A stretch of DNA of 64,000 bases, taken from the NCBI GenBank assembly GCA_015062525.1, contig SUUM01000004.1:24547-88546 (forward strand), read 5' to 3'. The notes under the pieces were generated by a model that saw only the letters and a program-made list of their open reading frames with translations, ran no database searches and was not told the origin of the DNA. This document shows, in pieces, positions 2,060 through 51,492 of the stretch. Made by a program: the position numbers and the translations under genes. Each line of letters opens with the position of its first letter. Positions within the stretch are counted from its first letter, which is position 1. Source of the stretch: Alphaproteobacteria bacterium. Lineage in GTDB: Bacteria; Pseudomonadota; Alphaproteobacteria; Rs-D84.

Positions 2060-2787
2060 TGTGCAAATCCCCCACGTTGAATAAACAATTCATCAAAATT
2101 CCGACTGTTATATTTTCGCAATAACACGTCTGGCTCACCAGCCGCCAACACACGTCCACGTTCCATTAAAACAACACCACCACATCTTTCGGCTTCGTCC
2201 ATATATGCTGTTGACATTACCACCAAAATCCCACGTGCAACCGCATCGTGCAACAAATCCCAAAACTCACGCCGACTAATTGGATCAACGCCATTTGTTG
2301 GTTCGTCCAATAACATAATCTGGGGCGATCGCAACAACGCACAAATCAACCCCAATTTTTTATACATTCCACCCGATAATTGTCCCGCAGGCCTGTCCAT
2401 AAATTTATCAAGGCGCGCCAAATGCACCAACTCTTTCTTTTTCTGTTCAAAATCCGCATCATCTATGCCATACAGTTTTCGAAAAAAATCCAAATGTTCC
2501 GCCACCGATAAATCCGCATACAAACTCTGGCTTTGTGGCATATATGCAATATGTTCTGCCATATTTTGAAATGAAACCCCACGTCCATTTTCTCGATACA
2601 ACACCACACCCGAATTTGCCCGCATTAAATCCAACATAATCCGAAACAGCGTAGTCTTGCCCGCCCCAGCGGGTCCAATAATGCCATATAAATTTCCTGT
2701 ATCAAAACGCATAGACACATCATCCAAAGCAACCACATCTTTGAATCGTTTTGAAACCCCATCAACATGAATGTTTATATTAGTCAT
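2056..2787 (-). CDS. ABC transporter ATP-binding protein (second ATPase)
   Basis: Walker A GPAGAGKTT, LSGGMYKKL signature, LLDEPT Walker B; 4-bp overlap with the downstream gene. Confidence 0.85.
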   Translation of the reverse strand: MTNINIHVDGVSKRFKDVVALDDVSMRFDTGNLYGIIGPAGAGKTTLFRIMLDLMRANSGVVLYRENGRGVSFQNMAEHIAYMPQSQSLYADLSVAEHLDFFRKLYGIDDADFEQKKKELVHLARLDKFMDRPAGQLSGGMYKKLGLICALLRSPQIMLLDEPTNGVDPISRREFWDLLHDAVARGILVVMSTAYMDEAERCGGVVLMERGRVLAAGEPDVLLRKYNSRNFDELFIQRGGFAQ

Positions 2788-4511: not shown

Positions 4512-6092
4512 TTACTCTTCACAATCAAATTCAGCACAGCTCCCCATCGAATATTCCTCTATCGCAAACTCCATCGGCACTGGCTTAGGCTCTTCTGTAT
4601 AGTGAACTTCTTTGACGACACGCACACGACGATTTGCCGCATTCGGAGTATTGTCTGGTGTTGGCACCGCCAAATCTTCCTCGCCGGCGGAAACAGCAAC
4701 AATTTGGCTGGCCGGAATTCCGTACTTAATCAACATCTTCTGCACGGCTTCGGCACGACGTCCCCCCAACGCATAGTTATAATTGGATGTACCCGCCGTA
4801 TCGGTATGCCCAACCACAGAAACCCTGATATTTTTATTTTCCTGGGTCACATCAACCAACTGTTTAATCAATTCCTGATATTCTGGTTTAATAGTCGCCT
4901 TGTTAAAATCAAACCGTATTTCGAACACTTCCTCCATAACATGCTGGGTTGGTTCAAGTGGAATCTGCTGAACCTTAATCATTGTTTTTTCGCCCTGATT
5001 CACTTGAATCTGGTCCAGACGCGCATTAATCGCAGCCAATTCCGCACGCATCGCCATCATCATATTGATAAATTCTTCACGCGACACCAGTTCATCCCCA
5101 ATCATTGGTGGTTCTTTTTCTTTTACCACAACCGCCACAGATGGCGCATTTTGACAATTCGCATCACCCTGTGCACATGTATGATTATGCGATTGCGACT
5201 GGCATTCCATATCCCCCGCTGGGCAATCAACCGCCATCAGACGATTAGCACTGTTGTGCATACTGTTGTCATTTGCACTGTTTGAAATTGTTTTATCCCC
5301 ACCATAGATATTCTGATTAAACACCATTGGCTGAACTGGCACAGGATTAATCAGATGTTCTGGCACATTAACGTTATTCACAACAATCACACCTTCGCGT
5401 GCCGCGCCACCACCACGCATAGTGTTCATACCACGCGTTTCCGGATAATAAGCCCCAGCGGTACGTTGCGTTGTTTCAACAACAGTTTCCCGCCCTACAA
5501 CACTCGCGGTTGATTTATTCACAACTTTACCACCATTACAATCACGCAACGCCACCAGGGCTTTATTAAACCTGTCGCGACATTGATTTGCAGTTGCAAC
5601 CTGACCACTTGCCGCCGCAGACAACCAGCAATCAAACTTAGCCTGCGCCTCAGCCGCCAGTTCCGGATTAGTGTACGACGCATCATTTTTCAATTGATCC
5701 ATCAAATCATTATACGCAGCATACAACTCAAACGATTCCTGTTCATTTTCCACCGGCCAATTTTCAAGAGATTCTGGGAATGGCACCTCGCCACTAAATG
5801 CAGCAACGGCCTTGTTAGCAAACAACTCGCCCATATCGGTATAACCACTGGTCCGCGCATTATAAATCGCATAAGAACGATAATTCATTGCCAATTGATT
5901 CAAGAAAGAATCCTGATGCGGTGCGGAATAAACATCCAAAAACTCAACATAATCAACAGTCGGCGTCGCACCAACATCCGTATATTCCATCACATCGCCA
6001 CCCGAACGTGCACACGCACCAACCGCCACAATGCCCACCAGCGCCAGCATACGTGATATAACCCATGTAGCAACATTTGATTTATATTTCAT
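4512..6092 (-). CDS. OmpA-family (peptidoglycan-binding) lipoprotein
   Basis: Signal peptide with lipobox-like VGAC; C-terminal OmpA/MotB domain (VGHTDTAGTSNYNYALGGRRAEAV...RRVRV). Confidence 0.75.
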   Translation of the reverse strand: MKYKSNVATWVISRMLALVGIVAVGACARSGGDVMEYTDVGATPTVDYVEFLDVYSAPHQDSFLNQLAMNYRSYAIYNARTSGYTDMGELFANKAVAAFSGEVPFPESLENWPVENEQESFELYAAYNDLMDQLKNDASYTNPELAAEAQAKFDCWLSAAASGQVATANQCRDRFNKALVALRDCNGGKVVNKSTASVVGRETVVETTQRTAGAYYPETRGMNTMRGGGAAREGVIVVNNVNVPEHLINPVPVQPMVFNQNIYGGDKTISNSANDNSMHNSANRLMAVDCPAGDMECQSQSHNHTCAQGDANCQNAPSVAVVVKEKEPPMIGDELVSREEFINMMMAMRAELAAINARLDQIQVNQGEKTMIKVQQIPLEPTQHVMEEVFEIRFDFNKATIKPEYQELIKQLVDVTQENKNIRVSVVGHTDTAGTSNYNYALGGRRAEAVQKMLIKYGIPASQIVAVSAGEEDLAVPTPDNTPNAANRRVRVVKEVHYTEEPKPVPMEFAIEEYSMGSCAEFDCEE

Positions 6093-6669: not shown

Positions 6670-6711
6670 AATGCAACGATTTTATATCACCCCCACAAAA
6701 AAATCAAATAC

Positions 6712-6905
6712 TTCGCTAAATAAAAGTTTAGTGGTTAGTGTAAGTGCTAGTGGTTAGTGGATGTGTGCGGCGAATGCCGCACATTATAGTGCCATCACTT
6801 ACCACTCACACTAACCACTTATCACTAAGATAAACTTTTATTTATCTAAGTGATGATATGTTAATTGCGCTTTGCTCTTTGCGCTTTGCTCTTTGCTCAT
6901 TGAAA
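6712..6905. repeat. palindromic repeat element (ttagtggttagtg family) plus gcgctttgctctttgc direct repeats
   Basis: ~130-bp imperfect palindrome centred on hairpin TGTGCGGCGAATGCCGCACA; copies recur at 13312, 35866, 38185 and 38440. Confidence 0.8.
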
Positions 6906-6930: not shown

Positions 6931-7983
6931 TCAGAACCTGTACACCCCAGAAACATTGATATTATGCAGTTGAATCACATCATTATATTTATACCGGTAA
7001 CCAATACCAAACTGTACCCCACGTGCCGACAGCAATTCTACACCACCACTAATATTAGCCCACAATGGATCAATATCAATATCATACCGTATAAACTCAT
7101 CCGCTACAGCAAATTTATATTCTGCATGATTTGGCGCACCGAACACATCATATTCCACCCCAATTGATGCATATGGTCGAACTTGGAACCTTGCCGATGG
7201 ATAAATACGTTTCTGTGCAATCAATGAATACCCCGGCGTTAAAACAAAATACCCATCTGATTGCATACGCAGATACTCATGGCCCGCCACCTTTTCTTTG
7301 ACATTAGACCCGAAATTATAGCCAACACGTACATACAAATTACCCACAACATATTGATTCAGAACATCATGCATCAGTCCCCATTCACTCATCAAACTGA
7401 ACGCAGTACCATCACCATCAATTCTGTCAACCAAGTTCTGGGTACGGTCAACGTCAAAGACATGCAAATCCAAGAACGCATTACCATATAAACGTGTCTT
7501 TTCACCCAGTATTTTCATCAAATAACCGCCCAGGCCAATATCAGTATCTGCGACATCAATACTGACATTTCCCACCTGGGTTGTACCAGCATAACTTAAA
7601 TCCACGGAATCACCCGCTTTGGACGTTGTGTGCGACACACGCCCCGACACCCCCAATTGCAAGGTATTTGATTCCTGCCAGTCAAAACCGCCCGCCACAC
7701 TGACACGATGACCGTCTGTATGTTTGCCATCATTAATATTTTGATAGAAAATACCATAATCGACATCCAACCATGCTTTATTCAAATTGCGATGACGATT
7801 CCAGATAAATTCATCAAACATACGGTCTTCGAATGAACGAAAGGACATATGTTCATTTAGCGCGACCGCCCCCGCAATCTGTTCAACAGATACCAGATTT
7901 TGAGCTGTTTCTGGTTCTACTACATCCGCCCCTGCCCCCATTGGCAGCAAGCAACAAACCAAAGATAACAACTTTTTCATCAT
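6931..7983 (-). CDS. outer-membrane beta-barrel protein (family unassigned)
   Basis: Signal peptide MMKKLLSLVCCLLPMGAGA, alternating beta-strand pattern, C-terminal YRF typical of OMPs. Confidence 0.55.
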   Translation of the reverse strand: MMKKLLSLVCCLLPMGAGADVVEPETAQNLVSVEQIAGAVALNEHMSFRSFEDRMFDEFIWNRHRNLNKAWLDVDYGIFYQNINDGKHTDGHRVSVAGGFDWQESNTLQLGVSGRVSHTTSKAGDSVDLSYAGTTQVGNVSIDVADTDIGLGGYLMKILGEKTRLYGNAFLDLHVFDVDRTQNLVDRIDGDGTAFSLMSEWGLMHDVLNQYVVGNLYVRVGYNFGSNVKEKVAGHEYLRMQSDGYFVLTPGYSLIAQKRIYPSARFQVRPYASIGVEYDVFGAPNHAEYKFAVADEFIRYDIDIDPLWANISGGVELLSARGVQFGIGYRYKYNDVIQLHNINVSGVYRF

Positions 7984-12550: not shown

Positions 12551-12582
12551 AATTTACTTATCGGCTTTGCCGATTAGGAAAT

Positions 12583-12650
12583 TTGAGTGTCTCGGCGGTG
12601 CTTGCACCGACGGACGGAAAGAACTCAAATTGGAACAAACATATTCGATG
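12583..12650. repeat. hairpin element GTCTCGGCGGTGCTTGCACCGACGGAC (single copy of the 27365 tandem-repeat core)
   Basis: Same ~45-bp motif, including flanking aaatttgagt, as the 52-bp tandem units at 27365-27714. Confidence 0.7.
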
Positions 12651-12892: not shown

Positions 12893-13010
12893 CGCCATCC
12901 GGCGGGATTTTTTAGTGGCTAGTGTAAGTGCATCCGTCTGTGCACAGCACAGCCGAGATAAAAAGAGCAAAGAGCAATTAATGTATCTTTACCGCGATGA
13001 ATAAAAGTTT
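12893..13010. repeat. repeat element arm (inverted partner of 13437..13530)
   Basis: agtgtaagtgcatccgtctgtgcacagcacagccgagataaaaagagcaaagagcaattaatgtatctttac is the reverse complement of 13441..13510. Confidence 0.75.
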
Positions 13011-13128
13011 AACAGAGATATTAATTTTTAGAAATTAAGCACCATTACCTGCCCCCGTCGGGCCCCGAAAAATTCAGATGAATTTTTTGGGTGACTTTGT
13101 GGGGCGGGACAGTTTTACTTGACCCGCC

Positions 13129-13314
13129 ATGCGGGGCTTTAGTAAAACTTGGGTGGGGGCAAATATGACAAAACATTCAACACAAGTTATTCGCGCAAAA
13201 CAATTACGCAAAAATATGTCAGACGCAGAAAGCAAATTCTGGTATCGAATTAATCGCAATCAACTAGGTGTAAAATTTCGCCGCAATAACAAAGCCACTT
13301 ACTTCGATAAATAA
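13129..13314 (+). pseudogene. truncated DUF559-like (endonuclease-domain) gene fragment
   Basis: 61 aa matching the N-terminal DUF559 pattern (LRKNMSDAESKFWYRINRNQLGVKFRR) but lacking the C-terminal half; ORF ends at the repeat element at 13312. Confidence 0.4.
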
Positions 13315-13530
13315 AAGTTTAGTGGTTAGTGCAAGTGGTTAGTGGTTAGTGGATGTGTGCGGCGAATGCCGCACATTATAGTGCCATCACTTACCACTTA
13401 CACTAACCACTTATCACTAAGATAAACTTTTATTTAGCGCAGTAAAGATACATTAATTGCTCTTTTTATCTCGGCTGTGCTGTGCACAGACGGATGCACT
13501 TACACTAATCACTAAAAAATCCCCGCTTGG
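13312..13530. repeat. palindromic repeat element (ttagtggttagtg family) plus inverted partner arm
   Basis: Near-identical to 6714..6846; the second half is the reverse complement of 12893..12960; ends in an A-tract/hairpin/T-tract terminator-like module also seen at 23843..23907. Confidence 0.8.
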
Positions 13531-13791: not shown

Positions 13792-13808
13792 TCTAAATGG
13801 GGGGATTT

Positions 13809-14816
13809 ATGCCGGCAATACATGTTAATAATGTTGATATTCAGGTGTATGAACAGCAGTATACATCACCCACCCTGCACGTGCAAAATACCGACGGAAA
13901 AATATACCATGCAATTGTTATACCCCAGGGGGGCGAATTTCTTGATGCCTCGGAAAAACTGGTATATTCCGCGGATTCAATCAACGAATGCGAACCGGTC
14001 ACATTGGATGCGGGAATGTATCGCGTGGAATTGCGTGGTGGCGCGGGTGGAAAACAATCGCGGTGTAATGTCGGTTTGGGTACAATAAACCCGGTTGCCA
14101 ATACGGTATCCCAGGTTTTTAAATTACCCACACAAACAACCGTATATGCATTTCGTGGTGGCGATGGTAATGACAGTCCCACGGTGACGGTTCATCAGAT
14201 TCCGGGTGGTGGCGCATCGGGTGTGGACAGCATGCTGGTGGTGGGTGACCATGCAATTGTTGGTATCGGCGCACCATCGTCACAGTGTTTTAATTTAGCT
14301 ATTACATCATACCCATACCCCCATGGGGGCACAACAACACGCTTTCAGTGCCAATCCACACCATCTGGAACATATGCCATAGAAAACATTGAAATAGGAC
14401 AAGCTGTAGGTGGTACTTATTTTGGCTGTGGTGGGGGTGGCGGGGGTGCCCCAAATGGTATTGGTGGTACATCGGTTTCATACACAAACGTTAAAATAAC
14501 CGCCGGCACCAATGCGACATCTGATGGGGGTGGGAATGGTGGTGATGCGGAAAATTTAACGGGGGATTCACAAACAAAAAATCTGGGGATTGGTGGCATT
14601 GGTGGCAAAAACGTATATTGGCAATGTGCCGGTCACACGGCGGTATCGTATGGTGGGGGCGGCGGCGGCGCCACATGCATGTTGTACAACCCAAATACGT
14701 GCGCCAGCACAACAAATGCATGGTGTTATTCCGATTGCGCCGATGGTGGCGACGGTGCATCGGGCAGTACCGGCAAATCAGACACCAGTTACGTTAAAAT
14801 TTATAAAATAGGATAA
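13809..14816 (+). CDS. Gly-rich protein, paralog 1 (fibre-like, unknown function)
   Basis: GGGGGG RBS then ATG at 13809; Gly-rich blocks (GGGGGGAPNGIGG, GGGNGGD); ~35% identical to the next gene; no signal peptide. Confidence 0.6.
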   Translation: MPAIHVNNVDIQVYEQQYTSPTLHVQNTDGKIYHAIVIPQGGEFLDASEKLVYSADSINECEPVTLDAGMYRVELRGGAGGKQSRCNVGLGTINPVANTVSQVFKLPTQTTVYAFRGGDGNDSPTVTVHQIPGGGASGVDSMLVVGDHAIVGIGAPSSQCFNLAITSYPYPHGGTTTRFQCQSTPSGTYAIENIEIGQAVGGTYFGCGGGGGGAPNGIGGTSVSYTNVKITAGTNATSDGGGNGGDAENLTGDSQTKNLGIGGIGGKNVYWQCAGHTAVSYGGGGGGATCMLYNPNTCASTTNAWCYSDCADGGDGASGSTGKSDTSYVKIYKIG

Positions 14817-14821
14817 TCATA

Positions 14822-15793
14822 ATGTTATTACCGTTGGCATTATTATCGGCATTATATTTTAAAACATCGGATGGTAATATTTATCATACCATTGATAAAA
14901 TACCGGATGGCATGTGCATACTAAACAATAACGGCGCGGAATTGGTGTACGAAGCAAGCAATTTTAACACCTGTAACGAAATTGTATTACAACCCGGATG
15001 TTATCGTGCGGAACTACGTGGCGGAATTGGCTTACAAAATGAATATTGTTTATCCATTGCCGAACAGGATTTTACCCCCACCATATCCGCAATATTCAGT
15101 ATAAACGAACCAACCACGGTATATGTATTCCGTGGTGGCGATGGTAACCCAGGTGGGGTAAATGTTATAAATAACAGAACTGGTGCATTCGGTGGCGGTG
15201 CATCGGGCGTGGACAGCATATTGGTTGTTGGCGACCGTGTATGGCGTGCATCGGGTGGCGCGGGTAAAACGTGTGTAGCCACAAGATATCATCTGAATGG
15301 CGCTACCAGCTCTAGCTCAGTTTCTGTTGGAAATGGTATTGGTGGGGGCGCAACGTCAAAAATCAGCACTCAATCTCGTTTATATTTACAACAAATATCA
15401 GCACTACGCTTCGAGGTATACGGCATTGGCGGTGGTGGTGGCGCGTCACCAAATGGCGCCGGCGGTACAGATTGGCAATTCCACAGTGCTTTTATCAATG
15501 CGGATGAATATGTAAATGCCGGCACCAATGGCACAGATGAACGTGGTGGTAACGGTGGTGATATTTATTCGTGTAATAACCCATCCTGTACATCCATGGT
15601 ATCCGCCACGGGGGGCACGGGTGGCGCAACCGTTACATATGAATGTGGTGGCCAAACCGCAAAATCATATGGTGGTGGTGGCGGTGGCGGGGCATACAAT
15701 GGAAGCAACTCAACCGCCGCCAACGGCGGTAATGGCGGTTCCGGTTCAACCGGCACCAGCGACACATCATTTGTACGAATTTATCGCATATAA
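14822..15793 (+). CDS. Gly-rich protein, paralog 2
   Basis: AGGA RBS; shares VY.FRGGDGN, GGGASGVDS.LVVGD and TG.SDTS.V.IY.I motifs with paralog 1; tandem arrangement. Confidence 0.6.
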   Translation: MLLPLALLSALYFKTSDGNIYHTIDKIPDGMCILNNNGAELVYEASNFNTCNEIVLQPGCYRAELRGGIGLQNEYCLSIAEQDFTPTISAIFSINEPTTVYVFRGGDGNPGGVNVINNRTGAFGGGASGVDSILVVGDRVWRASGGAGKTCVATRYHLNGATSSSSVSVGNGIGGGATSKISTQSRLYLQQISALRFEVYGIGGGGGASPNGAGGTDWQFHSAFINADEYVNAGTNGTDERGGNGGDIYSCNNPSCTSMVSATGGTGGATVTYECGGQTAKSYGGGGGGGAYNGSNSTAANGGNGGSGSTGTSDTSFVRIYRI

Positions 15794-15809: not shown

Positions 15810-16412
15810 TTATTCCCACCCCTGACGTTTTACAAACTGTGATACAGTCGCGGGATAAACCCCCATTATCTTGGATATTTGATATTTACTGACCCCCATA
15901 TCCAATAAATCTTTCACCAGTTTTGTATTTCTGGCCAGGCCCAATTTCCTTGAACGTGTCGCCATCGGTCGCCCCAGTCTTTTGCCCGTGGCACGAATAC
16001 TGTCCAACGACGCCTTGGTTCGTTGCGATATCAGGTTGCGTTCAATCTCGGCCGATAAACCAAATGCAAATGCCATTACCTTGGACTGAATATCATTTCC
16101 CAAACGATAACTTTCCTTGATGGTCCAAACCTGACAATTTTTATTCATACAAAATTCCAAAATTTTCATAATCTCTAGTACCGAACGCCCCAGACGCGAT
16201 ATCTCGGCGGCAATTAAAATATCACCATCATGCAACCCATTTAACAATAACCATAAACGTCTTTTCGATAATGGTTCACGCGATGATATTTTTTCTTGTA
16301 TCCACCGTTCGACCTTTATATGATTTTGCCTTGAAAATTTATTTATCTCGAAATATTGATGTTCGCACGTTTGTTTATTCGATGACACACGAATATAGCC
16401 GATAATCGCCAT
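15810..16412 (-). CDS. serine recombinase, Hin/Gin/Cin-type DNA invertase (resolvase family)
   Basis: 200 aa; N-terminal catalytic motif IGYIRVSS with the Ser nucleophile; C-terminal HTH (GVSKYQISKIMGVYPATVSQFVKRQG); size typical of small invertases. Confidence 0.8.
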   Translation of the reverse strand: MAIIGYIRVSSNKQTCEHQYFEINKFSRQNHIKVERWIQEKISSREPLSKRRLWLLLNGLHDGDILIAAEISRLGRSVLEIMKILEFCMNKNCQVWTIKESYRLGNDIQSKVMAFAFGLSAEIERNLISQRTKASLDSIRATGKRLGRPMATRSRKLGLARNTKLVKDLLDMGVSKYQISKIMGVYPATVSQFVKRQGWE

Positions 16413-25424: not shown

Positions 25425-27062
25425 TCAGAACCTTGCATTCACCCCGATACGAATCCCAAGTGATTTATAAAAAGATTTTATTTCGCTATCCACCTTGTCT
25501 TCCCAGTTGTTTGCACGCACCACGGCAACATATTCAGGATCTAATTCAACCACTTGTCCATTCGTATCCAGGATACGATCTGCCTGGGAAATACCATTTT
25601 GCATAAAATGCTCTATCTGCGAATCCGAAAAAGTGTTTCCAAAATCAGTATTCAGCACCTTTTTCCACAGGTTAAATGCATTTTCATATTCTGGCACCCA
25701 ATAAGACGGATTCAAATACGTCGTAGCATCCGCGTCAGACACAGAATAATAATCATATGTCAAACCAATAGACAACGCAACCTTGTCCGTTATCGCGGTA
25801 CGCCAATTTGCCCCCATACCAAAATGGATTCCGGAACCAATCCCCCCCTTGTCCTGAACGGATTTTGGGTGTTGCCAATCAATACGATACGGCTGGTCGC
25901 CCGTGGCGGTGTACGACGGCAATCCTAACTCAACATTTGCCACCACAACATTATTCTGATTGATATCATATTGCATATCCAAAGCGACGTATGGACCCGA
26001 CCACTCAACCTCGTACGAATGACTCACATCCGGCTGCTCAAAATAGAACGTTCCTTCGGCCTCAACTAAATCATAGCCCCCAGGCACCTGAACCGCCGCA
26101 TAAACCGCATCCCCTTCCAGATAGCCATCGCCATCACTATCCACTAACTGATTTCCATTTGCATCAAAATAAGAATACCCAGGATACGCAGGATTCGCAT
26201 AATTCTGAATACCGTCAAACACCGCAATCAGTGGCCAACATTGTGTTGAACCGTCCATCAACGTTACACAGGACGCATCATAATCCGCATTAACAAAAAC
26301 CACACCTTTGTTGTTTGTCGTTTTCAAATCATATTTTAAATAGCGCCAACCAACCGATGGTGTAATTCTCAAATTCCCCAATTTAAAAAAGTCCGTCAGT
26401 CCAATACCAACATTGTAACCAAACATATCACCGTCTTTACTGACACCACTTGATAAAGCATGCCCCAGCTTCTCCCCTGTGAACGCATTACCCGCACTAT
26501 TCACACCATAATACAAACCATACAAATAACCACCATGACTAATATCATCATCAATCATACTGGTTTCACCAGTCTGCATACCATACTGCAACCCTGCGCC
26601 AATTTGCACGGCAGTATTACCAACATCAAAGACAGATTTAGCTGCCGCATCAAACACCAACCAGTCTATATTATCATAGTGTAATTTTGACCCCGCGGTA
26701 TCCATTTCAAATTCCCACATCGCCACCTGCTTAGACAACCCGGCATCCAAACTGAACCCATGCGCACTAGATTGTGTTGCCACACGTTTTTGTTGTGATT
26801 GCTGTGGCTGTTGTGGCTGTTGCGTCATTCCAGCACGCGAATTTGTTGTATACCCCGCATTTGCATACTGATTACGATTATACGCCGACACGCCCTGGGA
26901 CGAATAATTCGTTGTACGAGCACGCTGGGTATAAGACTGTTGCGAATAACTTCTCTGGGGGGATTGGTAATTCCCTGTATAATACGTGCCCGCAGCATGC
27001 GCACCCGCCGACACCAGCACAATTGCAGAACAACTAAACAAAAAACGTGGCAAGATTTTCAT
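25425..27062 (-). CDS. outer-membrane beta-barrel protein with a Q-rich N-terminal region
   Basis: Signal peptide MKILPRFLFSCSAIVLVSAGAHA; C-terminal beta-signal ending in ARF. Confidence 0.55.
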   Translation of the reverse strand: MKILPRFLFSCSAIVLVSAGAHAAGTYYTGNYQSPQRSYSQQSYTQRARTTNYSSQGVSAYNRNQYANAGYTTNSRAGMTQQPQQPQQSQQKRVATQSSAHGFSLDAGLSKQVAMWEFEMDTAGSKLHYDNIDWLVFDAAAKSVFDVGNTAVQIGAGLQYGMQTGETSMIDDDISHGGYLYGLYYGVNSAGNAFTGEKLGHALSSGVSKDGDMFGYNVGIGLTDFFKLGNLRITPSVGWRYLKYDLKTTNNKGVVFVNADYDASCVTLMDGSTQCWPLIAVFDGIQNYANPAYPGYSYFDANGNQLVDSDGDGYLEGDAVYAAVQVPGGYDLVEAEGTFYFEQPDVSHSYEVEWSGPYVALDMQYDINQNNVVVANVELGLPSYTATGDQPYRIDWQHPKSVQDKGGIGSGIHFGMGANWRTAITDKVALSIGLTYDYYSVSDADATTYLNPSYWVPEYENAFNLWKKVLNTDFGNTFSDSQIEHFMQNGISQADRILDTNGQVVELDPEYVAVVRANNWEDKVDSEIKSFYKSLGIRIGVNARF

Positions 27063-27237
27063 ATTACACCCTTTCCTTTTAATCCGTATCAAAAGATATT
27101 TTATCATAAAAAAGTTGAAAAACAAATTTAATATTGCAAAAATATATCACCAGGACACATATCATGTCTCACATTTGCGATCATGGCGACTACGTGAGCG
27201 AACGCGAACGTGCCGCCCAGAACCATTATTCAAACAC

Positions 27238-27322
27238 GCGACCATGGCGGAACTGGTAGACGCGCAGCACTAAGGATGCTGTGGGGCAACCCTTGGGGGT
27301 TCGATTCCCCCTGGTCGCACCA
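27238..27322 (+). tRNA. tRNA-Leu, type II; anticodon reads AAG (A34, unusual) by manual folding
   Basis: Acceptor GCGACCA/TGGTCGC; anticodon stem CAGCA/TGCTG with loop CTAAGGA; 5' half nearly identical to tRNA-Leu(CAG) at 12383. Confidence 0.65.
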
Positions 27323-27364
27323 CCAAATTTTCAAGCAAGCGCAGCGCGCGTTGAAAATTTGAGT

Positions 27365-27714
27365 GTCTCGGCGGTGCTTTGCACCGACGGACAGCAAGAA
27401 CCAACGGTTATTCAATGTCTCGGCAGTACCTTGCACCGACGGACAGCAAGAACCAACGGTTATTCAATGTCTCGGCAGTACCTTGCACCGACGGACAGCA
27501 AGAACCAACGGTTATTCAACGTCTCGGCGGTGCTTTGCACCGACGGACAGCAAGAACCAACGGTTATTCAGTGTCTCGGCGGTGCTTTGCACCGACGGAC
27601 AGCAAGAACCAACGGTTATTCAATGTCTCGGCGGTGCTTTGCACCGACGGACAGCAAGAACCAACGGTTATTCAATGTCTCGGCGGTGCCTTGCACAGAC
27701 GGGGTCTTGTCTCC
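27365..27714. repeat. 52-bp tandem repeat, 6 full + 1 divergent copy, each with hairpin CGGTGC-TTT-GCACCG
   Basis: Exact 52-bp periodicity (units at 27365, 27417, 27469, 27521, 27573, 27625, 27677); units 2-3 carry three transitions in the hairpin arm; a single homologous copy lies at 12583. Confidence 0.9.
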
Positions 27715-27765
27715 ATTTTCTACTTGCTCGACTTTTGATAAATTTGCTAACATTCATTCAACAGA

Positions 27766-30762
27766 ATGAAGGGAATTAAACTGCTTTTGGCTGTATTGCT
27801 TGCACCGCTTGCGTTTCAAGCGGTGGCGGCTGACAACACATCCGAAATCGCCCGCGCGGCTACGCGTCAAAACACTGGTGGCGGCATCACATCCGCCCGT
27901 CAAAGGGGCAACGCAACCCAACAAAAACCAACCTCAACATCACGTACAAGGAATGCCAACAAATCTGGGTCAACGTCCGTACGTGAACGCACAACCACCA
28001 CACCACGTGATGGCGCAACCACCACACGCACTGCCAAGACCCCCGAAAAAAACGTGTCGGCACGCAACGCGACAAAAATTCAGCCACGAACAATAAAAAC
28101 TGTTGCCCACGCCACACAACCACGTGCCACAACAACGGCACGCGTCGCGACAAAATCACGCGTTGCCACCACCACACCCAAAACACGCGCGCGCAATGCC
28201 ACCGCACCAGCAACAGGCACCGACGTATTAAACCGCGACTTTTCCAAGTGTCGTACGGTATTTTATGACTGTATGGATGAATTCTGCGCGAACAAGGACA
28301 GCCAACTGAAACGTTGCGCATGTTCAGCCCGCATAAACGAATTTGACGGGACTAAACGAAATCTTGCTAATGTAGAGGAAAAACTGCTGGATTTCAGCCA
28401 ACGTCTATTGACTGTCAATATGGACAAAGAAGATGCAATGGCGTTGTACAAACCGACCGAGGGCGAACTGGCCTATGCTACCGAAGACACATCTGCATCT
28501 AAAAAGATGTTGGACGAAATCGCCAAGAAATTAAACACAAGTTTTAACGACAACAACTTTGACCAGGGGTTAAACACCATATCTTTGTCATTAAATATGG
28601 ATTCTGCATTTGATACAGTTGATTCCATGGCGGGCGCATCAACGGCGGCAAAATCCGGCACAGATTTATACATATCCGCCCTGCCCGTATGCCGCGAAAT
28701 GGCGCTTGAGGTTTGCAGTTCCGACGACCTAGCAATCGCAGAAAGCAGTTATCAAATGGCAATTGAAAGCGACTGCAACACAGTAAAAAAATCATACCAA
28801 ACCCAGGTTGACCAGGCCCGCGAACAGGTATTTGAATCAGGCGCCCTGTTGGACATGTCGCGCCTTGACATTCATCAGAAACGAAATTCAGACGACGTAT
28901 TAACCTGCAAACGCAAGATGCTGGATATGCTAACCGATTCGACCGTCTGTGGCACAGACATGGGCAAATGCCTGGATACCACGGGGCGATACATTGACCC
29001 CACAACGGGCAAGGCGTTCCTGACAACGGAATTGGCAAACCTTGCTACATTAATAACACACCCCGAAACAGGTCAAACATGGCGCACCGCCCCTGGCAAT
29101 GACCGCTTCGTCACATTTTTAAATTCAAAAAAGAAGTTCTTAGAACCCGCCATGGAAAATTGCCAAGATATTTCCGACTATGTTTGGGACGAATTTATTA
29201 ACGACGCATTGGCACAAATCAAATTAGCCCAAGACAAAAAACTGGAAGAAATGCGCCAATCATGCACCACATTAACAACCCAATGTCTGGCAGAAACATA
29301 CGATTCGATTACAGAATTTGATGCACGTGCCCTATCAATTTTTGGCGTTGCCGCCGACAAAACCGTTAATGCTATGTGCGCTGACGTACAAACTGCATGC
29401 ACAGCATTAATGGAAACATCGGGCGGCGGTACAGATTGGCAATCCGGCATGACCGCAATCGCAACAGAAAAAACATATGAAACTATCCTGCAAACATGTC
29501 GTGAAGTTGGGCGCACCTGCATCATCCAAACATGCTCATCAATATCCGGCAACTTTGGGCTGTGTGAAAACATAGACACATCAATTAACCGCAAATCAAT
29601 AATCAACCGCAGTGCCTGCTGGAACGAAGTTGTCGCCTGTATTGCCAGTGCCGGTGCAGATTCCCTGACAAAAATTCAGTCACTGCATGCTTTGGACACA
29701 ATTAGAAACTCGGTTTCGGACACAACCGGCAATTCAACGGTAAATCGCCCAAATACATTCCGCACATTTTATGGCGAAATGTACGGCATAACAAATGCGG
29801 AAGATATTACCGTATCATTATCAGACACCGACACCATAACCCCATGTATCAGCAATGATGACACAAACTGTGTTTATGACATATGCACCACAGAATGTGC
29901 AAACGCAACCGAACAATCACCCGTTCCCACCGAATGTTATACATGTCGTCTGGCGGAACGTATTTGGGGCAATTGCGAAGCACCATCAAACACAGAATTG
30001 ACCAATACGCAACCCAACATCGACGGCAATGAAACAAGTGCTACATATCACAACCGCATTAAAACGAATGCGGACACCCTGTTGGCATGGTTTGCAGAAA
30101 ACACAGGAACCGACGGTTTAACCGACAGCTGTCGCGACACCAGTTGTCGCCCAGGCTATAAACTGGCCAACAATGGTTCATGTGTACCACCAGCCCTTAT
30201 TGCAGACAACGGTGAAACGTGCACAACTACTGATGATTACAGATATAATATCTACGACGATTATTCAGCATGTTGCGAAAGTGGCAAGAAAGATTATTAT
30301 GGCAACTGCTGCGAAGAAGAAGTCGCCAACCTCAACAACACAATAACCACACAAAACGACGACATATACTTTGGTGAAAAAGTCGTCAGTAAGATTTGCG
30401 CAACCCCAACCGCCAATTTGGCAAACCTGGTTGTTCGTTATACAGCCGACGACAAAACATATGATTTGATATGCCAAGGCGACATAACCTGGACAGGCAA
30501 TGAAGAAATCGGCTATCCAAACGGCAAAACCGTACATTGTAATGGCGAACTGGTACGCATTGACACAGACGGACACTATGATTCACCCCTAGGAACAAAT
30601 GGCATAACCGTATCAAATTATTACCTCGACCATGGACTCACATATAAATATGCTGGCACCCAACAGGGTAATATGTGGAATAACTGCGGTACAACATCAC
30701 AACCACAAACAACAGAAAATATTATAAATTGGTCAATTAAATACACAGAAGTATGTAATTAA
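27766..30762 (+). CDS. large secreted Cys-rich protein, paralog B (unknown function)
   Basis: Signal peptide MKGIKLLLAVLLAPLAFQAVA; T/R/A-rich disordered region; Cys-rich domain alignable with paralog A (CRTVFYDCMDEFC / CKNTYFSCMDQFC, etc.). Confidence 0.7.
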   Translation: MKGIKLLLAVLLAPLAFQAVAADNTSEIARAATRQNTGGGITSARQRGNATQQKPTSTSRTRNANKSGSTSVRERTTTTPRDGATTTRTAKTPEKNVSARNATKIQPRTIKTVAHATQPRATTTARVATKSRVATTTPKTRARNATAPATGTDVLNRDFSKCRTVFYDCMDEFCANKDSQLKRCACSARINEFDGTKRNLANVEEKLLDFSQRLLTVNMDKEDAMALYKPTEGELAYATEDTSASKKMLDEIAKKLNTSFNDNNFDQGLNTISLSLNMDSAFDTVDSMAGASTAAKSGTDLYISALPVCREMALEVCSSDDLAIAESSYQMAIESDCNTVKKSYQTQVDQAREQVFESGALLDMSRLDIHQKRNSDDVLTCKRKMLDMLTDSTVCGTDMGKCLDTTGRYIDPTTGKAFLTTELANLATLITHPETGQTWRTAPGNDRFVTFLNSKKKFLEPAMENCQDISDYVWDEFINDALAQIKLAQDKKLEEMRQSCTTLTTQCLAETYDSITEFDARALSIFGVAADKTVNAMCADVQTACTALMETSGGGTDWQSGMTAIATEKTYETILQTCREVGRTCIIQTCSSISGNFGLCENIDTSINRKSIINRSACWNEVVACIASAGADSLTKIQSLHALDTIRNSVSDTTGNSTVNRPNTFRTFYGEMYGITNAEDITVSLSDTDTITPCISNDDTNCVYDICTTECANATEQSPVPTECYTCRLAERIWGNCEAPSNTELTNTQPNIDGNETSATYHNRIKTNADTLLAWFAENTGTDGLTDSCRDTSCRPGYKLANNGSCVPPALIADNGETCTTTDDYRYNIYDDYSACCESGKKDYYGNCCEEEVANLNNTITTQNDDIYFGEKVVSKICATPTANLANLVVRYTADDKTYDLICQGDITWTGNEEIGYPNGKTVHCNGELVRIDTDGHYDSPLGTNGITVSNYYLDHGLTYKYAGTQQGNMWNNCGTTSQPQTTENIINWSIKYTEVCN

Positions 30763-31898: not shown

Positions 31899-32420
31899 TT
31901 ACCATAATTTGATATTATCAATCACACCATGAATCAATTCTAACTGTTGTGGCCCGAATTTCCCCAGCACCCAATCCGCCGGATCCATTGGCAAACCAAA
32001 ATCACGCGGATGCCCAATACCAATCCTTATACGCCGGTAATCGCGTCCAACGTGCGCATCAATTGAACGAATACCATTGTGCCCGGCGCTACCCCCACCA
32101 ATTTTTTCGCGGCAATTACCAACCGTAATATCCATATCATCATGGATTACAATTAAATTTTCCAATGGTACCTTATAAAAAGCCATCAATGCCCCAACCG
32201 CCACGCCACTGTTATTCATAAACGTCTGGGGTTTTACAAATATCACACGTCGTCCATCAATATCCATGCGGACGGTTAACGCATCTTTTTCGTTTTTCCA
32301 CGTTGCCCCCGCCCCCGCCAGGCAATCCACCGCCATAAATCCAACATTATGACGCGTATTGGCATACCCCGCCCCGGGATTACCCAATCCAACAACTAAA
32401 AACGGTTTATTTTCTTGCAT
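31899..32420 (-). CDS. pth: peptidyl-tRNA hydrolase
   Basis: FLVVGLGNPGAGYANTRHNVGFMAVD motif; start at MQENKPF (32420) within the longer ORF. Confidence 0.85.
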   Translation of the reverse strand: MQENKPFLVVGLGNPGAGYANTRHNVGFMAVDCLAGAGATWKNEKDALTVRMDIDGRRVIFVKPQTFMNNSGVAVGALMAFYKVPLENLIVIHDDMDITVGNCREKIGGGSAGHNGIRSIDAHVGRDYRRIRIGIGHPRDFGLPMDPADWVLGKFGPQQLELIHGVIDNIKLW

Positions 32421-32466
32421 ATTTACCACTCTTTTTTTTATTATAGTATCACAGAAAGGAGAAAAC

Positions 32467-33006
32467 ATGAACACAAAATCATTCGCTATTTTAACCGCCA
32501 CCACCATTATGTTATCAGCGGGCGCGGCAAACGCAAACATGTTATTCGATATTTATGCCGGTGGCACATACGGTTTTGGTGGCTATACAATGTACACGGG
32601 CGACCACGACATTTCAAAATCTGCCCAATCTTATGGCGCGGTTTTGGGTATGGACATCCCGATGTTCCGCGTAGAACTGGAATACAACTACCTGGATGCA
32701 GATGCATTAAACATAAACACAGGCTTTGTAAATGCATACTTTAAAATCCCAACCCCAATTGTAAAGCCATACATAGGCGCGGGTATTGGTTCTACATTTG
32801 ACAGCAAATATGAACCAACGCACGGCATAAAAACAGACATTGACGATGTAATGGCATACCAGGGTATGTTGGGTATTACACTGAATCTGCCGGTTATACC
32901 ATTTAATATCGACGTCGAAGGTCGCGTTATGTACGCCCCAGATATTATGACGGACATTGACCTGTTGCAATACGAAGGACGCGCAAAACTGCGATATGTA
33001 TTTTAA
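32467..33006 (+). CDS. small outer-membrane beta-barrel protein (OmpW/opacity-like)
   Basis: GGAG RBS; signal peptide ending ANA; ~180 aa with alternating hydrophobic strands and C-terminal YVF. Confidence 0.55.
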   Translation: MNTKSFAILTATTIMLSAGAANANMLFDIYAGGTYGFGGYTMYTGDHDISKSAQSYGAVLGMDIPMFRVELEYNYLDADALNINTGFVNAYFKIPTPIVKPYIGAGIGSTFDSKYEPTHGIKTDIDDVMAYQGMLGITLNLPVIPFNIDVEGRVMYAPDIMTDIDLLQYEGRAKLRYVF

Positions 33007-35859: not shown

Positions 35860-36060
35860 TAAATAAAAGTTTAGTGGTTAGTGTAAGTGCTAGTGGTTAG
35901 TGGATGTGTGCGGCGAATGCCGCACATTATAGTGCCATCACTTACCACTTGCACTAACCACTAAACTTTTATTTAGCGAAGTAATCATGGATTCCGCCAC
36001 TTACCACTAACCACTTACACTAACCACTTGCACTAACCACTAAAAAAATCCCCCAAACGG
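35860..36060. repeat. palindromic repeat element copy plus an extra half-copy (ttagtggttagtg family)
   Basis: Near-identical to 6714..6846; followed by a bidirectional terminator at 36041..36074. Confidence 0.8.
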
Positions 36061-36076
36061 GGGATTTTTATTAACA

Positions 36077-37672
36077 TTAAAACAATTTGAACTTGTAATT
36101 TGTTCCTGCACGGAATGTAACATTTGAATCCGCTAAACCGGCCGCCGCATTCACGGACCAGTTATCGCTCAGACCCATTGCCGCACCCAATGCAATCGCG
36201 GATTGACTGTTGTAATAGCCATAACCACCACCAACAGACACTTCGCCCTTGCCTACGCCAGACACCGCAACCGACGACATAGCGGCCGCACTTGCGATAC
36301 CAGCAGACAAATCTTCTTCCAGTGCATCGACCTTTTTATCCGTATAATCATAGGCGGACTTTAATGCCAATTCATTCTTGGAATCAACATATGCCTTGGC
36401 GGATGCCAACGTCATTTCATCGCCCGCAATACGATTTGCAACCTCTTCTTCAATTGCAGTCTTGTTTGCTGCAATGTTTGTTGCGTTTGTTTCAATCGCA
36501 ACCTTGTTTGCAGACACTGCGTCATCAATCGCATTGATCGCACCACTGAATGTTGCTTCATCGCCTGCAATTTCACCGGTCAACGCATCTGACACGGCAT
36601 CTGATTTTGCTGATTCAATCCCCAGCGTGTTGTCAACCCACTGTTGCTTTTCCGCAAAGATATATTCTGCTTCATCGCGCATGGAATCCAATGCAACATC
36701 AATCGCACCATTATCCGCCAATGCATTATCAATTTCTGCCTTGGCACCATTTGTAATTGTTTCCAGAATTGGCGCATCATAGACGTCTTTTGCTGCCTGA
36801 TACAATTCACCATTTGCAACATATGCATCTGCCGCCAGCTGTTTCGCCGCCTGTGCCTCTGCTAACTTAGTCGTTGCTTCGCCAACAGTTGCAAAATAAC
36901 CATCCAGTTCTGCGATTTTTGCACTATCATTTTCGAAAACAGTATTTGCCGCAGCAAAATTAACATCCTCGGTCGCTTTATTCGCAGTGGTCGTGGTCTC
37001 GGCTGTTGCAATATTAGCTTTATCGGCATTATATGCAGCAACCATATTATTAAATTCTGTTTCCAACGCAGAACCAGCAGTCGGCGTCACATCCAAATTT
37101 CTATCATCAACCAATTTTGTACCATCTGCTGACAGATGATATACATAACCGGAATCTTCAACTGTATACAATGTTCCATCAAATTCAACAGCAGTACCAT
37201 TGACAACATCAACCGATGCACCACCCGTGTATGTAGCATCTAATGCAACAACTTCCACCATATCTTGTGCATTTTCGCCCAGTGTTACAGTTTCACCCGC
37301 ACCATTTTTATAGGTGTAATTATCACGGCTGGCGGTTGCACCTGCGGCAATTGTCTGTGTACTTACGATATCGCCCGACGCGGTTGTTGTGCCGGTATAT
37401 GTCGATATATCTGGTGTTCCGTCTTGCAGGCTTTTTGTTGAACCATCTACATCCTTATATGTAAAATCAGTCAAAACCGGGTCTGAATTATATGCAATAC
37501 CCGTCGCGGTTGTACCGTCTGATTTTACGTAATCATACGTTGTACCAGCTACCCCGGCCGAGATATCCATACCACCGTTATATTTACCACCGAATGTGAC
37601 ATCTGTTGCCGCCACGGCTGGGCAAGACATTGCAATTGCAACCAGCGAAGTTAAAACAAAGTGTTTTTTCAT
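36077..37672 (-). CDS. surface adhesin-like protein, possibly a trimeric autotransporter (YadA-like C-terminal anchor)
   Basis: Signal peptide; long Ala/Thr-rich coiled/repetitive passenger; Gly/Ala-rich C-terminal ~80 aa ending FKLF. Confidence 0.5.
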   Translation of the reverse strand: MKKHFVLTSLVAIAMSCPAVAATDVTFGGKYNGGMDISAGVAGTTYDYVKSDGTTATGIAYNSDPVLTDFTYKDVDGSTKSLQDGTPDISTYTGTTTASGDIVSTQTIAAGATASRDNYTYKNGAGETVTLGENAQDMVEVVALDATYTGGASVDVVNGTAVEFDGTLYTVEDSGYVYHLSADGTKLVDDRNLDVTPTAGSALETEFNNMVAAYNADKANIATAETTTTANKATEDVNFAAANTVFENDSAKIAELDGYFATVGEATTKLAEAQAAKQLAADAYVANGELYQAAKDVYDAPILETITNGAKAEIDNALADNGAIDVALDSMRDEAEYIFAEKQQWVDNTLGIESAKSDAVSDALTGEIAGDEATFSGAINAIDDAVSANKVAIETNATNIAANKTAIEEEVANRIAGDEMTLASAKAYVDSKNELALKSAYDYTDKKVDALEEDLSAGIASAAAMSSVAVSGVGKGEVSVGGGYGYYNSQSAIALGAAMGLSDNWSVNAAAGLADSNVTFRAGTNYKFKLF

Positions 37673-37984: not shown

Positions 37985-38535
37985 AATTACTTTGATAAAT
38001 AAAAGTTTATCTTACAAAACACGTTAAGTGTTTTGTCATTCCGTGGCTTGACCACGGAACCCAGGTTATGCGCGCAAAGCGCGCACAAATAATAAGGATT
38101 CTATTACCTGGGTCCCGGTGTCAAGCACCGGGATGACAGAATTTTTTTACAAAAATTCTGTTTTTATTTACCCCACTAAACTTTTATTTAGCGAAGTAAT
38201 CATGGATTCCGCCACTTACCACTAACCACTTACACTAACCACTAAAAATCCCCCATTTACCCCGCTAAATAAAAGTTTAGTGAAATATTTAATTGTTAAA
38301 AAAATTAAGAACAGAGACAAGTTCTCCTCCGTGGGAGGAGTACGGCGTAGCCGGGAGGTGGGTTAACCCACCCCGTCCGCTTCGCGTCCACCCCTCCCCG
38401 GGGGCGCATGTGCGCCGCCGACGGAGGGGAACTTTTACCCCGCTAAACTTTTATTTATCGCAGTAATCATGGATTCCGCCACTTACCACTAACCACTTAC
38501 ACTAACCACTAAAAAAATCCCCATTACCGGGGATT
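37985..38535. repeat. composite intergenic repeat region: MITE-like element with ~33-bp TIRs (38035..38165), repeat-element half copies, GC-rich structured insert (38285..38450)
   Basis: TIR tgtcattccgtggcttgaccacggaacccaggt versus acctgggtcccggtgtcaagcaccgggatgaca; GC-rich hairpins ctcctccgtgggaggag and gggaggtgggttaacccacccc. Confidence 0.7.
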
Positions 38536-49004: not shown

Positions 49005-49080
49005 GCCGGTTTAGCTCAGCTGGTAGAGCGGCTGATTTGTAATCAGTAGGTCGTTGGTTCAAGTCCGACAACCGGCACCA
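49005..49080 (+). tRNA. tRNA-Thr (anticodon TGT)
   Basis: 76 nt; acceptor GCCGGTT/AACCGGC; loop TTTGTAA; T-loop TTCAAGT; encoded CCA. Confidence 0.8.
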
Positions 49081-49290
49081 GAATTAAAACGTACCATTTG
49101 GTGCGTTTTTTCGTTGGGTTTCCCTGCCTTTTTGATTTTTGTGTTGGGTGGCGAACTTGCGCGGGGCTGGCTATTTTTATTTTATTCGGGGCATGTAATT
49201 CCAACCCATTTCCGCCCCATGCCCCCAAACCACCAAAAACTGTGATGCAACAATAAAAAAAGGCGCCAGTCTGACGCCTTGCTGTATCAA
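49081..49290. repeat. modular ~300-bp repeat, copy R1 (tRNA-Thr-adjacent, terminator-exit variant)
   Basis: Shares the gcgttttttcgtt...attttattcggggc...ctgtgatgcaacaataaaaa core with R2, R3 and R5; ends in a hairpin terminator for the minus-strand gene. Confidence 0.8.
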
Positions 49291-49683: not shown

Positions 49684-49985
49684 GCTATGTGAGGCGATGT
49701 GTGATGCAGGCGGACCAAATCAACTGGCCGACCACTATTGGAAATCTTGGACTTTGGACTCGCCTTGGCATCCCGACAAAGGCTACCCGTTTAAAAACGC
49801 ACCAAACGGTGCGTTTTTTGTTTAGATTTCCCTGCCCTGTTGGATTTTGTGTCGGGTGGCGAACTTGCGTGGGGCGGGCTATTTTTATTTTATTCGGGGC
49901 GTGCAATTCCAACCCAATCCCGCCCCATGCGCTAAAAATACAAAAAACTGTGATGCAAAGTGTGATGCATTGTGGTATAGTTAAC
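49684..49985. repeat. modular repeat copy R2 (promoter-exit variant, TGgTATAGT extended -10 at 49973..49981)
   Basis: Contains the gctatgtgaggcgatgtgtgatgcaggc head, a tRNA-Thr 3'-end-like stretch (CGCCTTGGCATCCCGACAAAGGCTACC), terminator AAAAACGCACCAAACGGTGCGTTTTTT, and TGTGATGCA direct repeats before the -10. Confidence 0.85.
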
Positions 49986-51201: not shown

Positions 51202-51492
51202 GGCGATGTGTGATGCAGGCTGAGTAATCAACTGTCTGAAACCATTGGAAATCTTGGACTTTGGACTCGCCTTGGTATCCCGACAAAGGCTACCCGTTTA
51301 GAAACGCACCAAATGGTGCGTTTTTTCGTTGGTGGTTCCCTGCTCTTTTGATTTTTGGATTGGGCGCAACACCCATGCGGGGCGGGAGGGTTTTATTTTA
51401 TTCGGGGCGCACAAATCCAACCCAAATCCGCCCCACGACCCCAAAACACCAAAAACTGTGATGCAAAGTGTGATGCAGTGTGGTATAATTTG
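51197..51492. repeat. modular repeat copy R3 (promoter-exit variant, TGgTATAAT at 51481..51489)
   Basis: Same architecture as R2; perfect extended -10 consensus 25 bp upstream of the next ATG. Confidence 0.85.

Follow-up and report, generated by a model that had tools for sequence, protein, structure and literature searches.

Among the small repeats described in bacterial genomes, several invite comparison with the locus treated here, a tandem array of 52-bp hairpin-bearing units at positions 27364..27702 (+ strand) of a 64,000-nt stretch of contig SUUM01000004.1 (assembly GCA_015062525.1, Alphaproteobacteria bacterium, lineage Rs-D84), hereafter the window, where it lies between a tRNA-Leu(aag) gene and the gene of a large, Cys-rich, putatively secreted protein. 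The REP/BIME (PU) elements of enterobacteria are extragenic imperfect palindromes of about 30 nt with a conserved foot, sometimes clustered and usually transcribed in 3' regions; the trailer of Escherichia coli tyrT carries about three copies of a 178-bp repeat; and the RIME of rhizobia are mosaic elements of Alphaproteobacteria. In the BOX elements of Streptococcus pneumoniae, built as boxA-boxB(n)-boxC, the number of tandem boxB modules is variable, each module folds independently of the rest, length differs between strains, more so in the larger elements, and the effects on neighbouring genes are debated and orientation-dependent (PMC3049150). The pneumococcal SPRITE, terminator-like repeats, are stem-loops enriched just 3' of genes and possibly co-opted as terminators (PMC3049150). 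The array stands outside BOX, REP/BIME, RtT, CRISPR and intrinsic terminators; it is familiar in kind, though its family is undescribed, and it is probably a dispensable variable-number tandem repeat (VNTR) module of a mosaic repeat family, with incidental effects on its surroundings.

That the array is a real and well-delimited repeat is confirmed. Tandem Repeats Finder (TRF) detects a single strong array at 27364..27702, with period 52, 6.5 copies, 95% matches, 0% indels and a score of 608, which bears out the 52-bp periodicity of a preliminary description made from the sequence alone, whose count of 6.7 copies reflects an array end placed slightly further on; with at most three mismatches, six matches to a 31-nt unit pattern are present, against 0 in 100 shuffles. 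Register print-out, folds and a covariance model based on 14 distinct hairpin variants resolve each unit into a 28-nt hairpin, here called H, and a 24-nt linker, which folds into a 4-bp mini-hairpin (AACC-AAC-GGTT). The model recognises seven H hairpins of 28 nt each (starts 27365, 27417, 27469, 27521, 27573, 27625 and 27677; 40-47 bits), all seven head-to-tail on the + strand. In register the units read U1 V V U4 U U U7'. Units U1, U5 and U6 are identical and U4 deviates at its two boundary bases only; the two V units (units 2 and 3) share one sequence, in which the 5' arm shows exactly the three transitions claimed before (G>A, G>A, T>C); U7' is a partial, degenerate half unit. The core CGGTGC-TTT-GCACCG, once attributed to every unit, stands in units 1, 4, 5 and 6 within the longer stem GTC(T)CG(G)CGGTGC/GCACCG(A)CGGAC, and these intact 52-mers fold into an 11-bp interrupted, G+C-rich stem (-16.6 kcal/mol). 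The H fold is abolished in units 2 and 3, which adopt a different fold with a minimum free energy of -7.5 kcal/mol, and is not kept in the degenerate unit 7. Identity among units 1, 5 and 6 and between units 2 and 3 points to recent amplification, while the loss of the fold in units 2 and 3 without compensating changes suggests weak constraint on single units.

The array stem is followed by AGCAAGAACC, no U-tract stands after the H hairpins, and a terminator scan of 26900..27950 returned 0 sites; the array hairpins are therefore not canonical intrinsic terminators. Rfam searches, of the whole window at the gathering score and of 27100..27900 at E up to 10, gave tRNAs and noise only. An inverted-repeat search of 27100..27800 found the first hairpin behind the tRNA (hp1, see below) and the tRNA acceptor stem only, with no inverted ends of the boxA/boxC type or of the type of miniature inverted-repeat transposable elements (MITE) around the array.

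The boxB module of BOX is the nearest functional analogue. Like BOX, the array represents a modular, small, dispersed intergenic repeat, with a module of ~45-50 bp in variable tandem number that forms its own stem-loop; the likeness is one of architecture, the host belonging to an unrelated phylum and no sequence relation being expected. Unlike BOX, it has no boxA/boxC-type inverted ends, it is anchored behind the CCA end of a tRNA, and its H hairpin is used in two other element architectures. The 28-nt extragenic imperfect palindrome with a sequence-conserved foot recalls REP/BIME, but the copies run head-to-tail rather than alternating or inverted, the GTAG foot is missing, the sites are sparse (3 in 64 kb) and no Y1/RAYT gene is found among the window's open reading frames (ORFs) of at least 150 aa. 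With the tyrT trailer repeats (rtT RNA, rttR) the array shares its position as tandem repeats directly 3' of a tRNA gene and a presumed co-transcription with that gene, differing in its 52-bp unit, which holds no tRNA 3' fragment, in having no Rfam RtT match and in the dispersal of its module to non-tRNA contexts. A stem-loop repeat 3' of a gene and a mosaic of shared palindromic modules are features in common with SPRITE and RIME, from which the array departs by the absence of a uridine-rich tract after the stem, by unrelated sequences and by tandem head-to-tail amplification. A CRISPR array was rejected, as the whole 52-bp unit including the linker repeats and the ORFs scanned include no Cas family. 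Nor is the array itself a MITE, having neither terminal inverted repeats nor a target-site duplication around it. On anatomical grounds, a tRNA-like minihelix, an attC site and iterons were likewise rejected.

The dispensability of the array is best seen at the orthologous locus of relatives (contigs given here by L numbers), where the order of a divergent porin-like gene, tRNA-Leu(aag) and the gene of the large secreted protein is conserved and where H hairpins were counted between the tRNA and the large-protein gene. Seven H (6.5 units) are present in the window, in L106/L107 and in L109 (99.99% DNA identity), and six (5.5 units) in L108, which is 99.6% identical in DNA over 12.5 kb and misses one V unit; these are the only two alleles among the near-identical readable contigs. 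Three H occur in L110 (about 80% DNA) and in L118-L123 (66% protein; order B-A-B, where B has another hairpin top), two in L127 (65% protein), and one each in L116 (92% DNA, 96% protein), L125 (74% protein) and L126 (70% protein). L124 (65% protein) retains half a hairpin (about 0.5), L117 (70% protein) has none and a canonical terminator-like hairpin instead, and L128 (60% protein) has none in a spacer of only 71 nt from tRNA to ATG. Related species thus hold 0 to 2.5 units, with DNA identity to the window across the whole comparison ranging from 99.99% down to about 75%. L117 and L128 keep the same downstream gene with the array wholly absent. The empty site of L128 shows no clean insertion boundary. 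Copy number therefore varies among both strains and species, as the proposed use as a VNTR marker would have it; the array evolves fast, and the locus can serve as a strain marker for Rs-D84 organisms. The dispensability of the array in relatives argues against a regulatory significance.

The same comparison bears on the coding potential of the array, whose unit has no stop codon on the + strand. All three + frames are open across it (ORFs 27281..27769, 27363..27779 and 27379..27738), and a gene caller annotated a 136-aa product there on a JGI contig, which might suggest that one of these frames is a real protein-coding repeat. A period of 52, however, is not a multiple of 3; one of the ORFs starts inside the tRNA-Leu gene; none of the three has a Pfam match above the cut-off; an exact look-up of the 136-aa product found no record; no gene was called there in L108; and relatives with 0-1 units could not encode the product. 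A coding role is hardly credible, and the ORFs are artefacts of the repeat, as already stated in the preliminary description. The array is accordingly a trap for gene callers and, in addition, breaks short-read assemblies.

The element is not confined to one tRNA. Its full form is a composite in the order CCA, AAATTT-hairpin-AAATTT, GAG, H, with AAATTTGAG between the first hairpin and H. In the window a single-copy composite follows tRNA-Ala(cgc) at 12551..12640 (+), where sequence, fold and covariance model place an hp1 of type 2 (ATCGGCTTTGCCGAT) before an H hairpin at 12589..12615, which is set in an outer stem AATTTGAGT/ACTCAAATT, preceded by aaatttgagt and closed by the loop TT in place of TTT (fold -28.8 kcal/mol, z -3.6; covariance model 43 bits). 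Both the window and L112 have this composite behind tRNA-Ala(cgc). It also stands behind tRNA-Leu(aag) in the window, L110, L116, L118-L123 and L124-L127, and, again in L112, behind a 17-19-nt duplicate of the 3' end of tRNA-Val. It is co-oriented with the tRNA in every case, at three different tRNA sites, so that both the single copy behind tRNA-Ala and the idea of a tRNA-associated element amplified at tRNA-Leu hold good. At the tRNA-Leu locus, the type 1 hp1 of the window recurs unchanged in L118, L124 and L127, while L110, L116, L125 and L126 have type 2; this swap of types at one locus between close relatives suggests recombination between trailers.

Nor is the H hairpin bound to tRNA trailers. 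Across the 64 kb the covariance model finds exactly ten H hairpins, namely seven in the array, one behind tRNA-Ala and two diverged copies that the first reading of the sequence had overlooked. The latter, the variant ATCTCGGCTGTGCTGTGCACAGACGGAT at 12932..12959 (-; 41.9 bits) and a variant at 13468..13495 (+; covariance model, fold -12.6 kcal/mol), lie in the left and right terminal inverted repeats of a 620-bp element (12904..13523), which is inserted at the T-run of the tRNA-Val terminator and has terminal inverted repeats of ~130 nt (67 nt at 97% plus 63 nt at 81%). In both of them a G-C pair has become T-A on both sides. The outermost pair of H is G-C in tRNA-linked copies and A-T in MITE and inverted-repeat copies.

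Beyond the window, species-representative genomes of the GTDB, among which the window's own species is absent, were scanned with a degenerate hairpin pattern. It matched 105 loci, ~95 of them chance matches in high-GC genomes; the nine relevant ones are in metagenome-assembled genomes (MAGs) of gut Alphaproteobacteria (Ca. Enterousia, rumen and omasum MAGs) with a G+C content of 0.39-0.47, against 0.436 in the window. In eight of these nine MAGs and in four metagenome contigs, ATCTCGGCGGTGCTTTGCACCGACGGAT is a module of a ~200-bp multi-hairpin MITE-like element with the inverted ends ttccagagaatcgtca...tgacg..tctggaa, and H is identical at 26 of 26 positions in such elements from gut alphaproteobacterial MAGs, Ca. 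Enterousia among them, whose G+C content of 0.42-0.47 is near that of the window. In L039 the H hairpin stands ~130 nt upstream of a 16S rRNA gene. A first metagenome scan with the linker pattern CGGACAGCAAGAACCAACGG gave 0 matches, as did a scan of viral contigs, which gives no sign of a phage origin. The sharing of the hairpin across elements, together with other modular repeats in the window and in the relative L129, marks H as a building block of a mosaic repeat system, and the array is part of a lineage-specific modular intergenic repeat family, undescribed as a family, of gut Alphaproteobacteria related to Ca. Enterousia (Rs-D84). Enterousia belongs to the order Rs-D84, whose members have genomes of <1 Mb (PMC12306168), and undescribed modular hairpin repeats thus turn up in uncultured, genome-reduced bacteria of animal guts in which little repetitive non-coding DNA would be expected.

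This dispersal also bears on the notion that the units are tandem small-RNA genes processed from the tRNA precursor, acting in trans or titrating an RNA-binding protein, after the model of rtT RNA, which has been described from the tyrT operon (10.1101/2024.07.17.603846). Tandem repeats co-oriented in a tRNA 3' trailer, a stable hairpin, an invariant foot and a conserved linker mini-hairpin are all compatible with it. Yet Rfam gave no match, RtT included, the element is absent from L117 and L128, inverted repeats carry the hairpin in both orientations, MITE-like elements contain it as well, and degenerate units are tolerated, so that small-RNA genes are very improbable.

At the array locus itself, tRNA-Leu(aag) (27238..27322, +; ARAGORN, Rfam tRNA 54.5 bits) is preceded by a promoter-like site found by consensus scan, TTGAAA-17-AAAAAT with TG (27115..27143, +), which probably serves the tRNA; the same site is present in L117 and visibly kept in L110, L118 and L124-L128. 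Immediately 3' of the CCA stands an hp1 of type 1, CAAATTTTCAA...TTGAAAATTTG (27324..27361, +), seen as an 11-nt perfect inverted repeat and in the fold, and the array starts 42 nt 3' of the tRNA on the same strand. At its other end, 13 nt separate the array from the block ATTTTnnnCTTGCnnGnCTTTTnATAAATTTGCTAa (27715..27753, +), which an alignment of 10 orthologous loci shows to be invariant in 10 of 10 relatives, between repeat and ATG and with a conservation above that of coding sequence. The block is probably the own promoter of the next gene, with a candidate -35 TTGCTC (27724..27729), an 18-nt spacer and an extended -10 TGC-TAACAT ending at 27753; this candidate is below the threshold of the consensus scan and was thus not called by it, and it would leave a very short leader. 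From the TRF end of the array to the ATG (27766) there are 64 nt, and the last half unit, next to the block, is constant. If the block is a promoter, the array would lie 5' of the downstream gene's own promoter, within the tRNA 3' trailer.

Such a position could suit a selected terminator or insulator array, possibly acting together with hp1, that would stop or attenuate transcription from the strong tRNA-Leu promoter and leave the secreted-protein gene to its own promoter alone, more units giving tighter insulation. In its favour, the array separates a conserved tRNA promoter-like site from a conserved promoter-like block, its stems are stable, the element is always co-oriented with the tRNA, and the window has no canonical terminator from tRNA to gene, while canonical terminators follow tRNA-Leu(taa) and tRNA-Val of the window and tRNA-Leu(aag) of the element-free L117. 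These terminators at the equivalent place make a barrier or insulating side effect of the array plausible. Selection for insulation is nevertheless unlikely: no hairpin has a U-tract, the fold is gone in two of seven units, and the composite of tRNA-Ala lies inside a tRNA cluster, with the Ala gene on one side and Leu-taa on the other, an odd place for termination. Moreover, the 71-nt spacer of L128 contains no element and no terminator, and L124 has half a hairpin only, which implies that insulation is not required. An insulator role in the tRNA trailer is conceivable, and, should the hairpins limit read-through from the tRNA promoter, the relatives would offer a natural series of 0 to 7 units for the study of barriers without a U-tract, although nothing seen requires that they do.

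A second regulatory reading, put forward in the preliminary description, takes the array for a contingency locus, a phase switch or rheostat in which 52-bp unit changes would switch or tune the secreted protein within the gut population. The downstream gene (27766..30762, +) encodes, by ORF list and translation, a 998-aa Cys-rich protein whose family is conserved in gut Alphaproteobacteria, with >846 homologues, some named hypothetical proteins of Alphaproteobacteria MAGs; the exact protein is found on 20 contigs. The label of surface protein goes further than the features found, which are a signal-peptide-like N-terminus and no Pfam domain. A secreted, fast-evolving product, a one-unit difference between 99.6%-identical strains and heptamers, (CATGTCT/CCTGTCTCAT)n, flanking the element in relatives would all fit a contingency locus, and promoter-proximal repeats do tune adhesin genes elsewhere, as with the 7-bp repeats of Haemophilus influenzae hmw and the TAAA repeats of Neisseria meningitidis nadA. 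Against this, units of 52 bp slip far less often than repeats of 1-7 bp, only two alleles are seen in readable near-identical contigs, and the array is absent from close species, with the gene kept in L117 and L128. Length polymorphism, as expected of phase variation, is present, but the repeat lies neither in an ORF nor between or overlapping promoter elements, if the promoter is placed correctly. Since the array stands 5' of the promoter-like block, itself invariant, and ends in the same partial unit throughout, added or lost units would alter neither the -35/-10 spacing nor the proximal sequence nor the reading frame. The chance that the array is a contingency locus is slim.

Taken together, the interpretation in the preliminary description is partly supported, and the preferred reading is that of a dispensable VNTR module. 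The array would grow or shrink by 52 bp at a time as near-identical hairpin-forming copies slip during replication or recombine unequally, and the element would be exchanged among tRNA trailers by recombination. The array would be transcribed within the tRNA precursor, and under read-through from the tRNA promoter every intact unit would fold as a stable stem-loop. Transcription might then pause or stop in part, exonucleases might be held up, or the tRNA might be uncoupled from the downstream mRNA at a processing site. Any of these would be a copy-number-dependent by-product of a probably neutral or selfish array, for the most part, rather than a purpose-built switch. That L128 and L124 do without the full element and that two decayed units are tolerated indicates that any such barrier effect is not essential.

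Several observations weigh against this reading. All copy numbers rest on short-read assemblies, in which several contigs are interrupted at the array; the one-unit difference of L108 should be resolvable at k = 141, since the exactly periodic stretch is ~141 nt and no 140-mer is repeated (own calculation). The element occupies the "terminator slot" of other tRNA genes, so that a terminator job is conceivable. The foot of H is (G/A)TCTCGGC, and TCTCGGC...GACGG is invariant in all 14 distinct variants, and the linker AGAACCAACGGTTATTCA is retained between species whose orthologous protein is only ~65% identical; together these indicate conservation above that of neutral DNA and hint at a recognising factor or a function. 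In the covariation analysis 89.6% of cells are paired and three pairs have changed on both sides, values that 16-19 of 500 shuffles also reach; selection on the fold may be at work, yet the support from the alignment is modest. On the strength of a foot that is invariant across genera and three element architectures, one might imagine H as the binding or cleavage site of a trans-acting factor of these reduced-genome gut Alphaproteobacteria, transposase-like or RNA-processing, with the trailer arrays as copy-number-tunable valves. If this were true, the arrays would set the share of strong tRNA-promoter transcription that reaches the secreted-protein gene and would constitute a new kind of long-unit contingency locus; such valves are improbable.

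Some observations concern the immediate surroundings of the element. Directly 5' of tRNA-Leu, at 27176..27237 (+), lies a ~61-bp unit that opens with a copy of the 5' end of that tRNA (its first 12 nt, gcgatcatggcg...), as read from the sequence, so that repeats stand on both sides of the tRNA. The unit is single in the window and doubled in tandem in L117 (about 2165..2287); such repetition of a tRNA-end fragment is tyrT-like, but upstream of the tRNA. Homology of its 3' end, AGAACCA..TTATTCAA, to the 52-bp linker is weak (13 of 500 shuffles are as good) and was not relied on. In L110, (CATGTCT)5 stands 5' of tRNA-Leu and (CCTGTCTCAT/ATCTCAT)n 3' of the hairpins (about 4790..4830 and 5080..5140). 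Heptamer repeats also occur upstream of the gene in L125-L127 and vary in number between relatives; they are in direct orientation, and TGTCTC is common to them and the start of the 52-bp unit. In L112 (3370..3700, minus strand) tRNA-Val and its terminator are followed by ~170 nt, the tRNA-Val 3' duplicate, the composite (1.9 units) and the terminator once more. The duplicate could be the attachment site of an integrative element; a local duplication of the tRNA end plus terminator fits equally.

Inside the 620-bp element lie a palindrome of (TTAGTGG)n and (CCACTAA)n and, at 13165..13314, a DUF559 fragment of 49 aa (Pfam E 1.3e-6). DUF559 was rejected as a partner of the H hairpin, having only truncated relatives in the protein database, and the one such locus fetched (L129) is without H. 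L129 is itself a dense patchwork of other repeat modules. A second repeat family of the window likewise consists of heptamer runs, (TTAGTGG)n and (CCACTAA)n, arranged as long palindromes around gtgtgcggcgaatgccgcacat with "gataaataaaagttta" feet (6700..6850, 13290..13450, 35860..36045, 38170..38250 and 38440..38515), and mostly adjoins canonical terminators of the form aaaaatccccc...gggggattttt. At 38010..38150 there is a MITE-like multi-hairpin element (gtcattccgtggcttgaccacggaa ... cccggtgtcaagcaccgggatgacag) with modules akin to those of the ~200-bp Enterousia element.

The gene of the 998-aa protein is one of several in the window for outer-membrane or secreted proteins (4512..6092, 6931..7983, 25425..27125, 32359..33006 and 36077..37672), of OmpA-domain, autotransporter beta-domain, Pom-like porin, outer-membrane beta-barrel and YadA-anchor kinds, interspersed with housekeeping genes (enolase, PolA, Pth, EF-Ts, S2 and SmpB). 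At a distance of 2.3 kb from the 620-bp element, a serine recombinase is encoded at 15810..16412 (-; Resolvase N-terminal domain and HTH); two ORFs without a Pfam match (13797..14816 and 14822..15793) occupy the interval, and this stretch may form a small islet behind the tRNA cluster. Finally, a 186-nt sequence is present in three direct copies (49065..49250, 49773..49958 and 51281..51466; the second and third 82% and 66% identical to the first), which bracket small ORFs. The first copy begins where tRNA-Thr(tgt) ends and takes in the terminator of that tRNA, and a 31-nt repeat ending in TGTGATGCA(G) occurs at four places; both repeats may be remains of insertions at tRNA-Thr.

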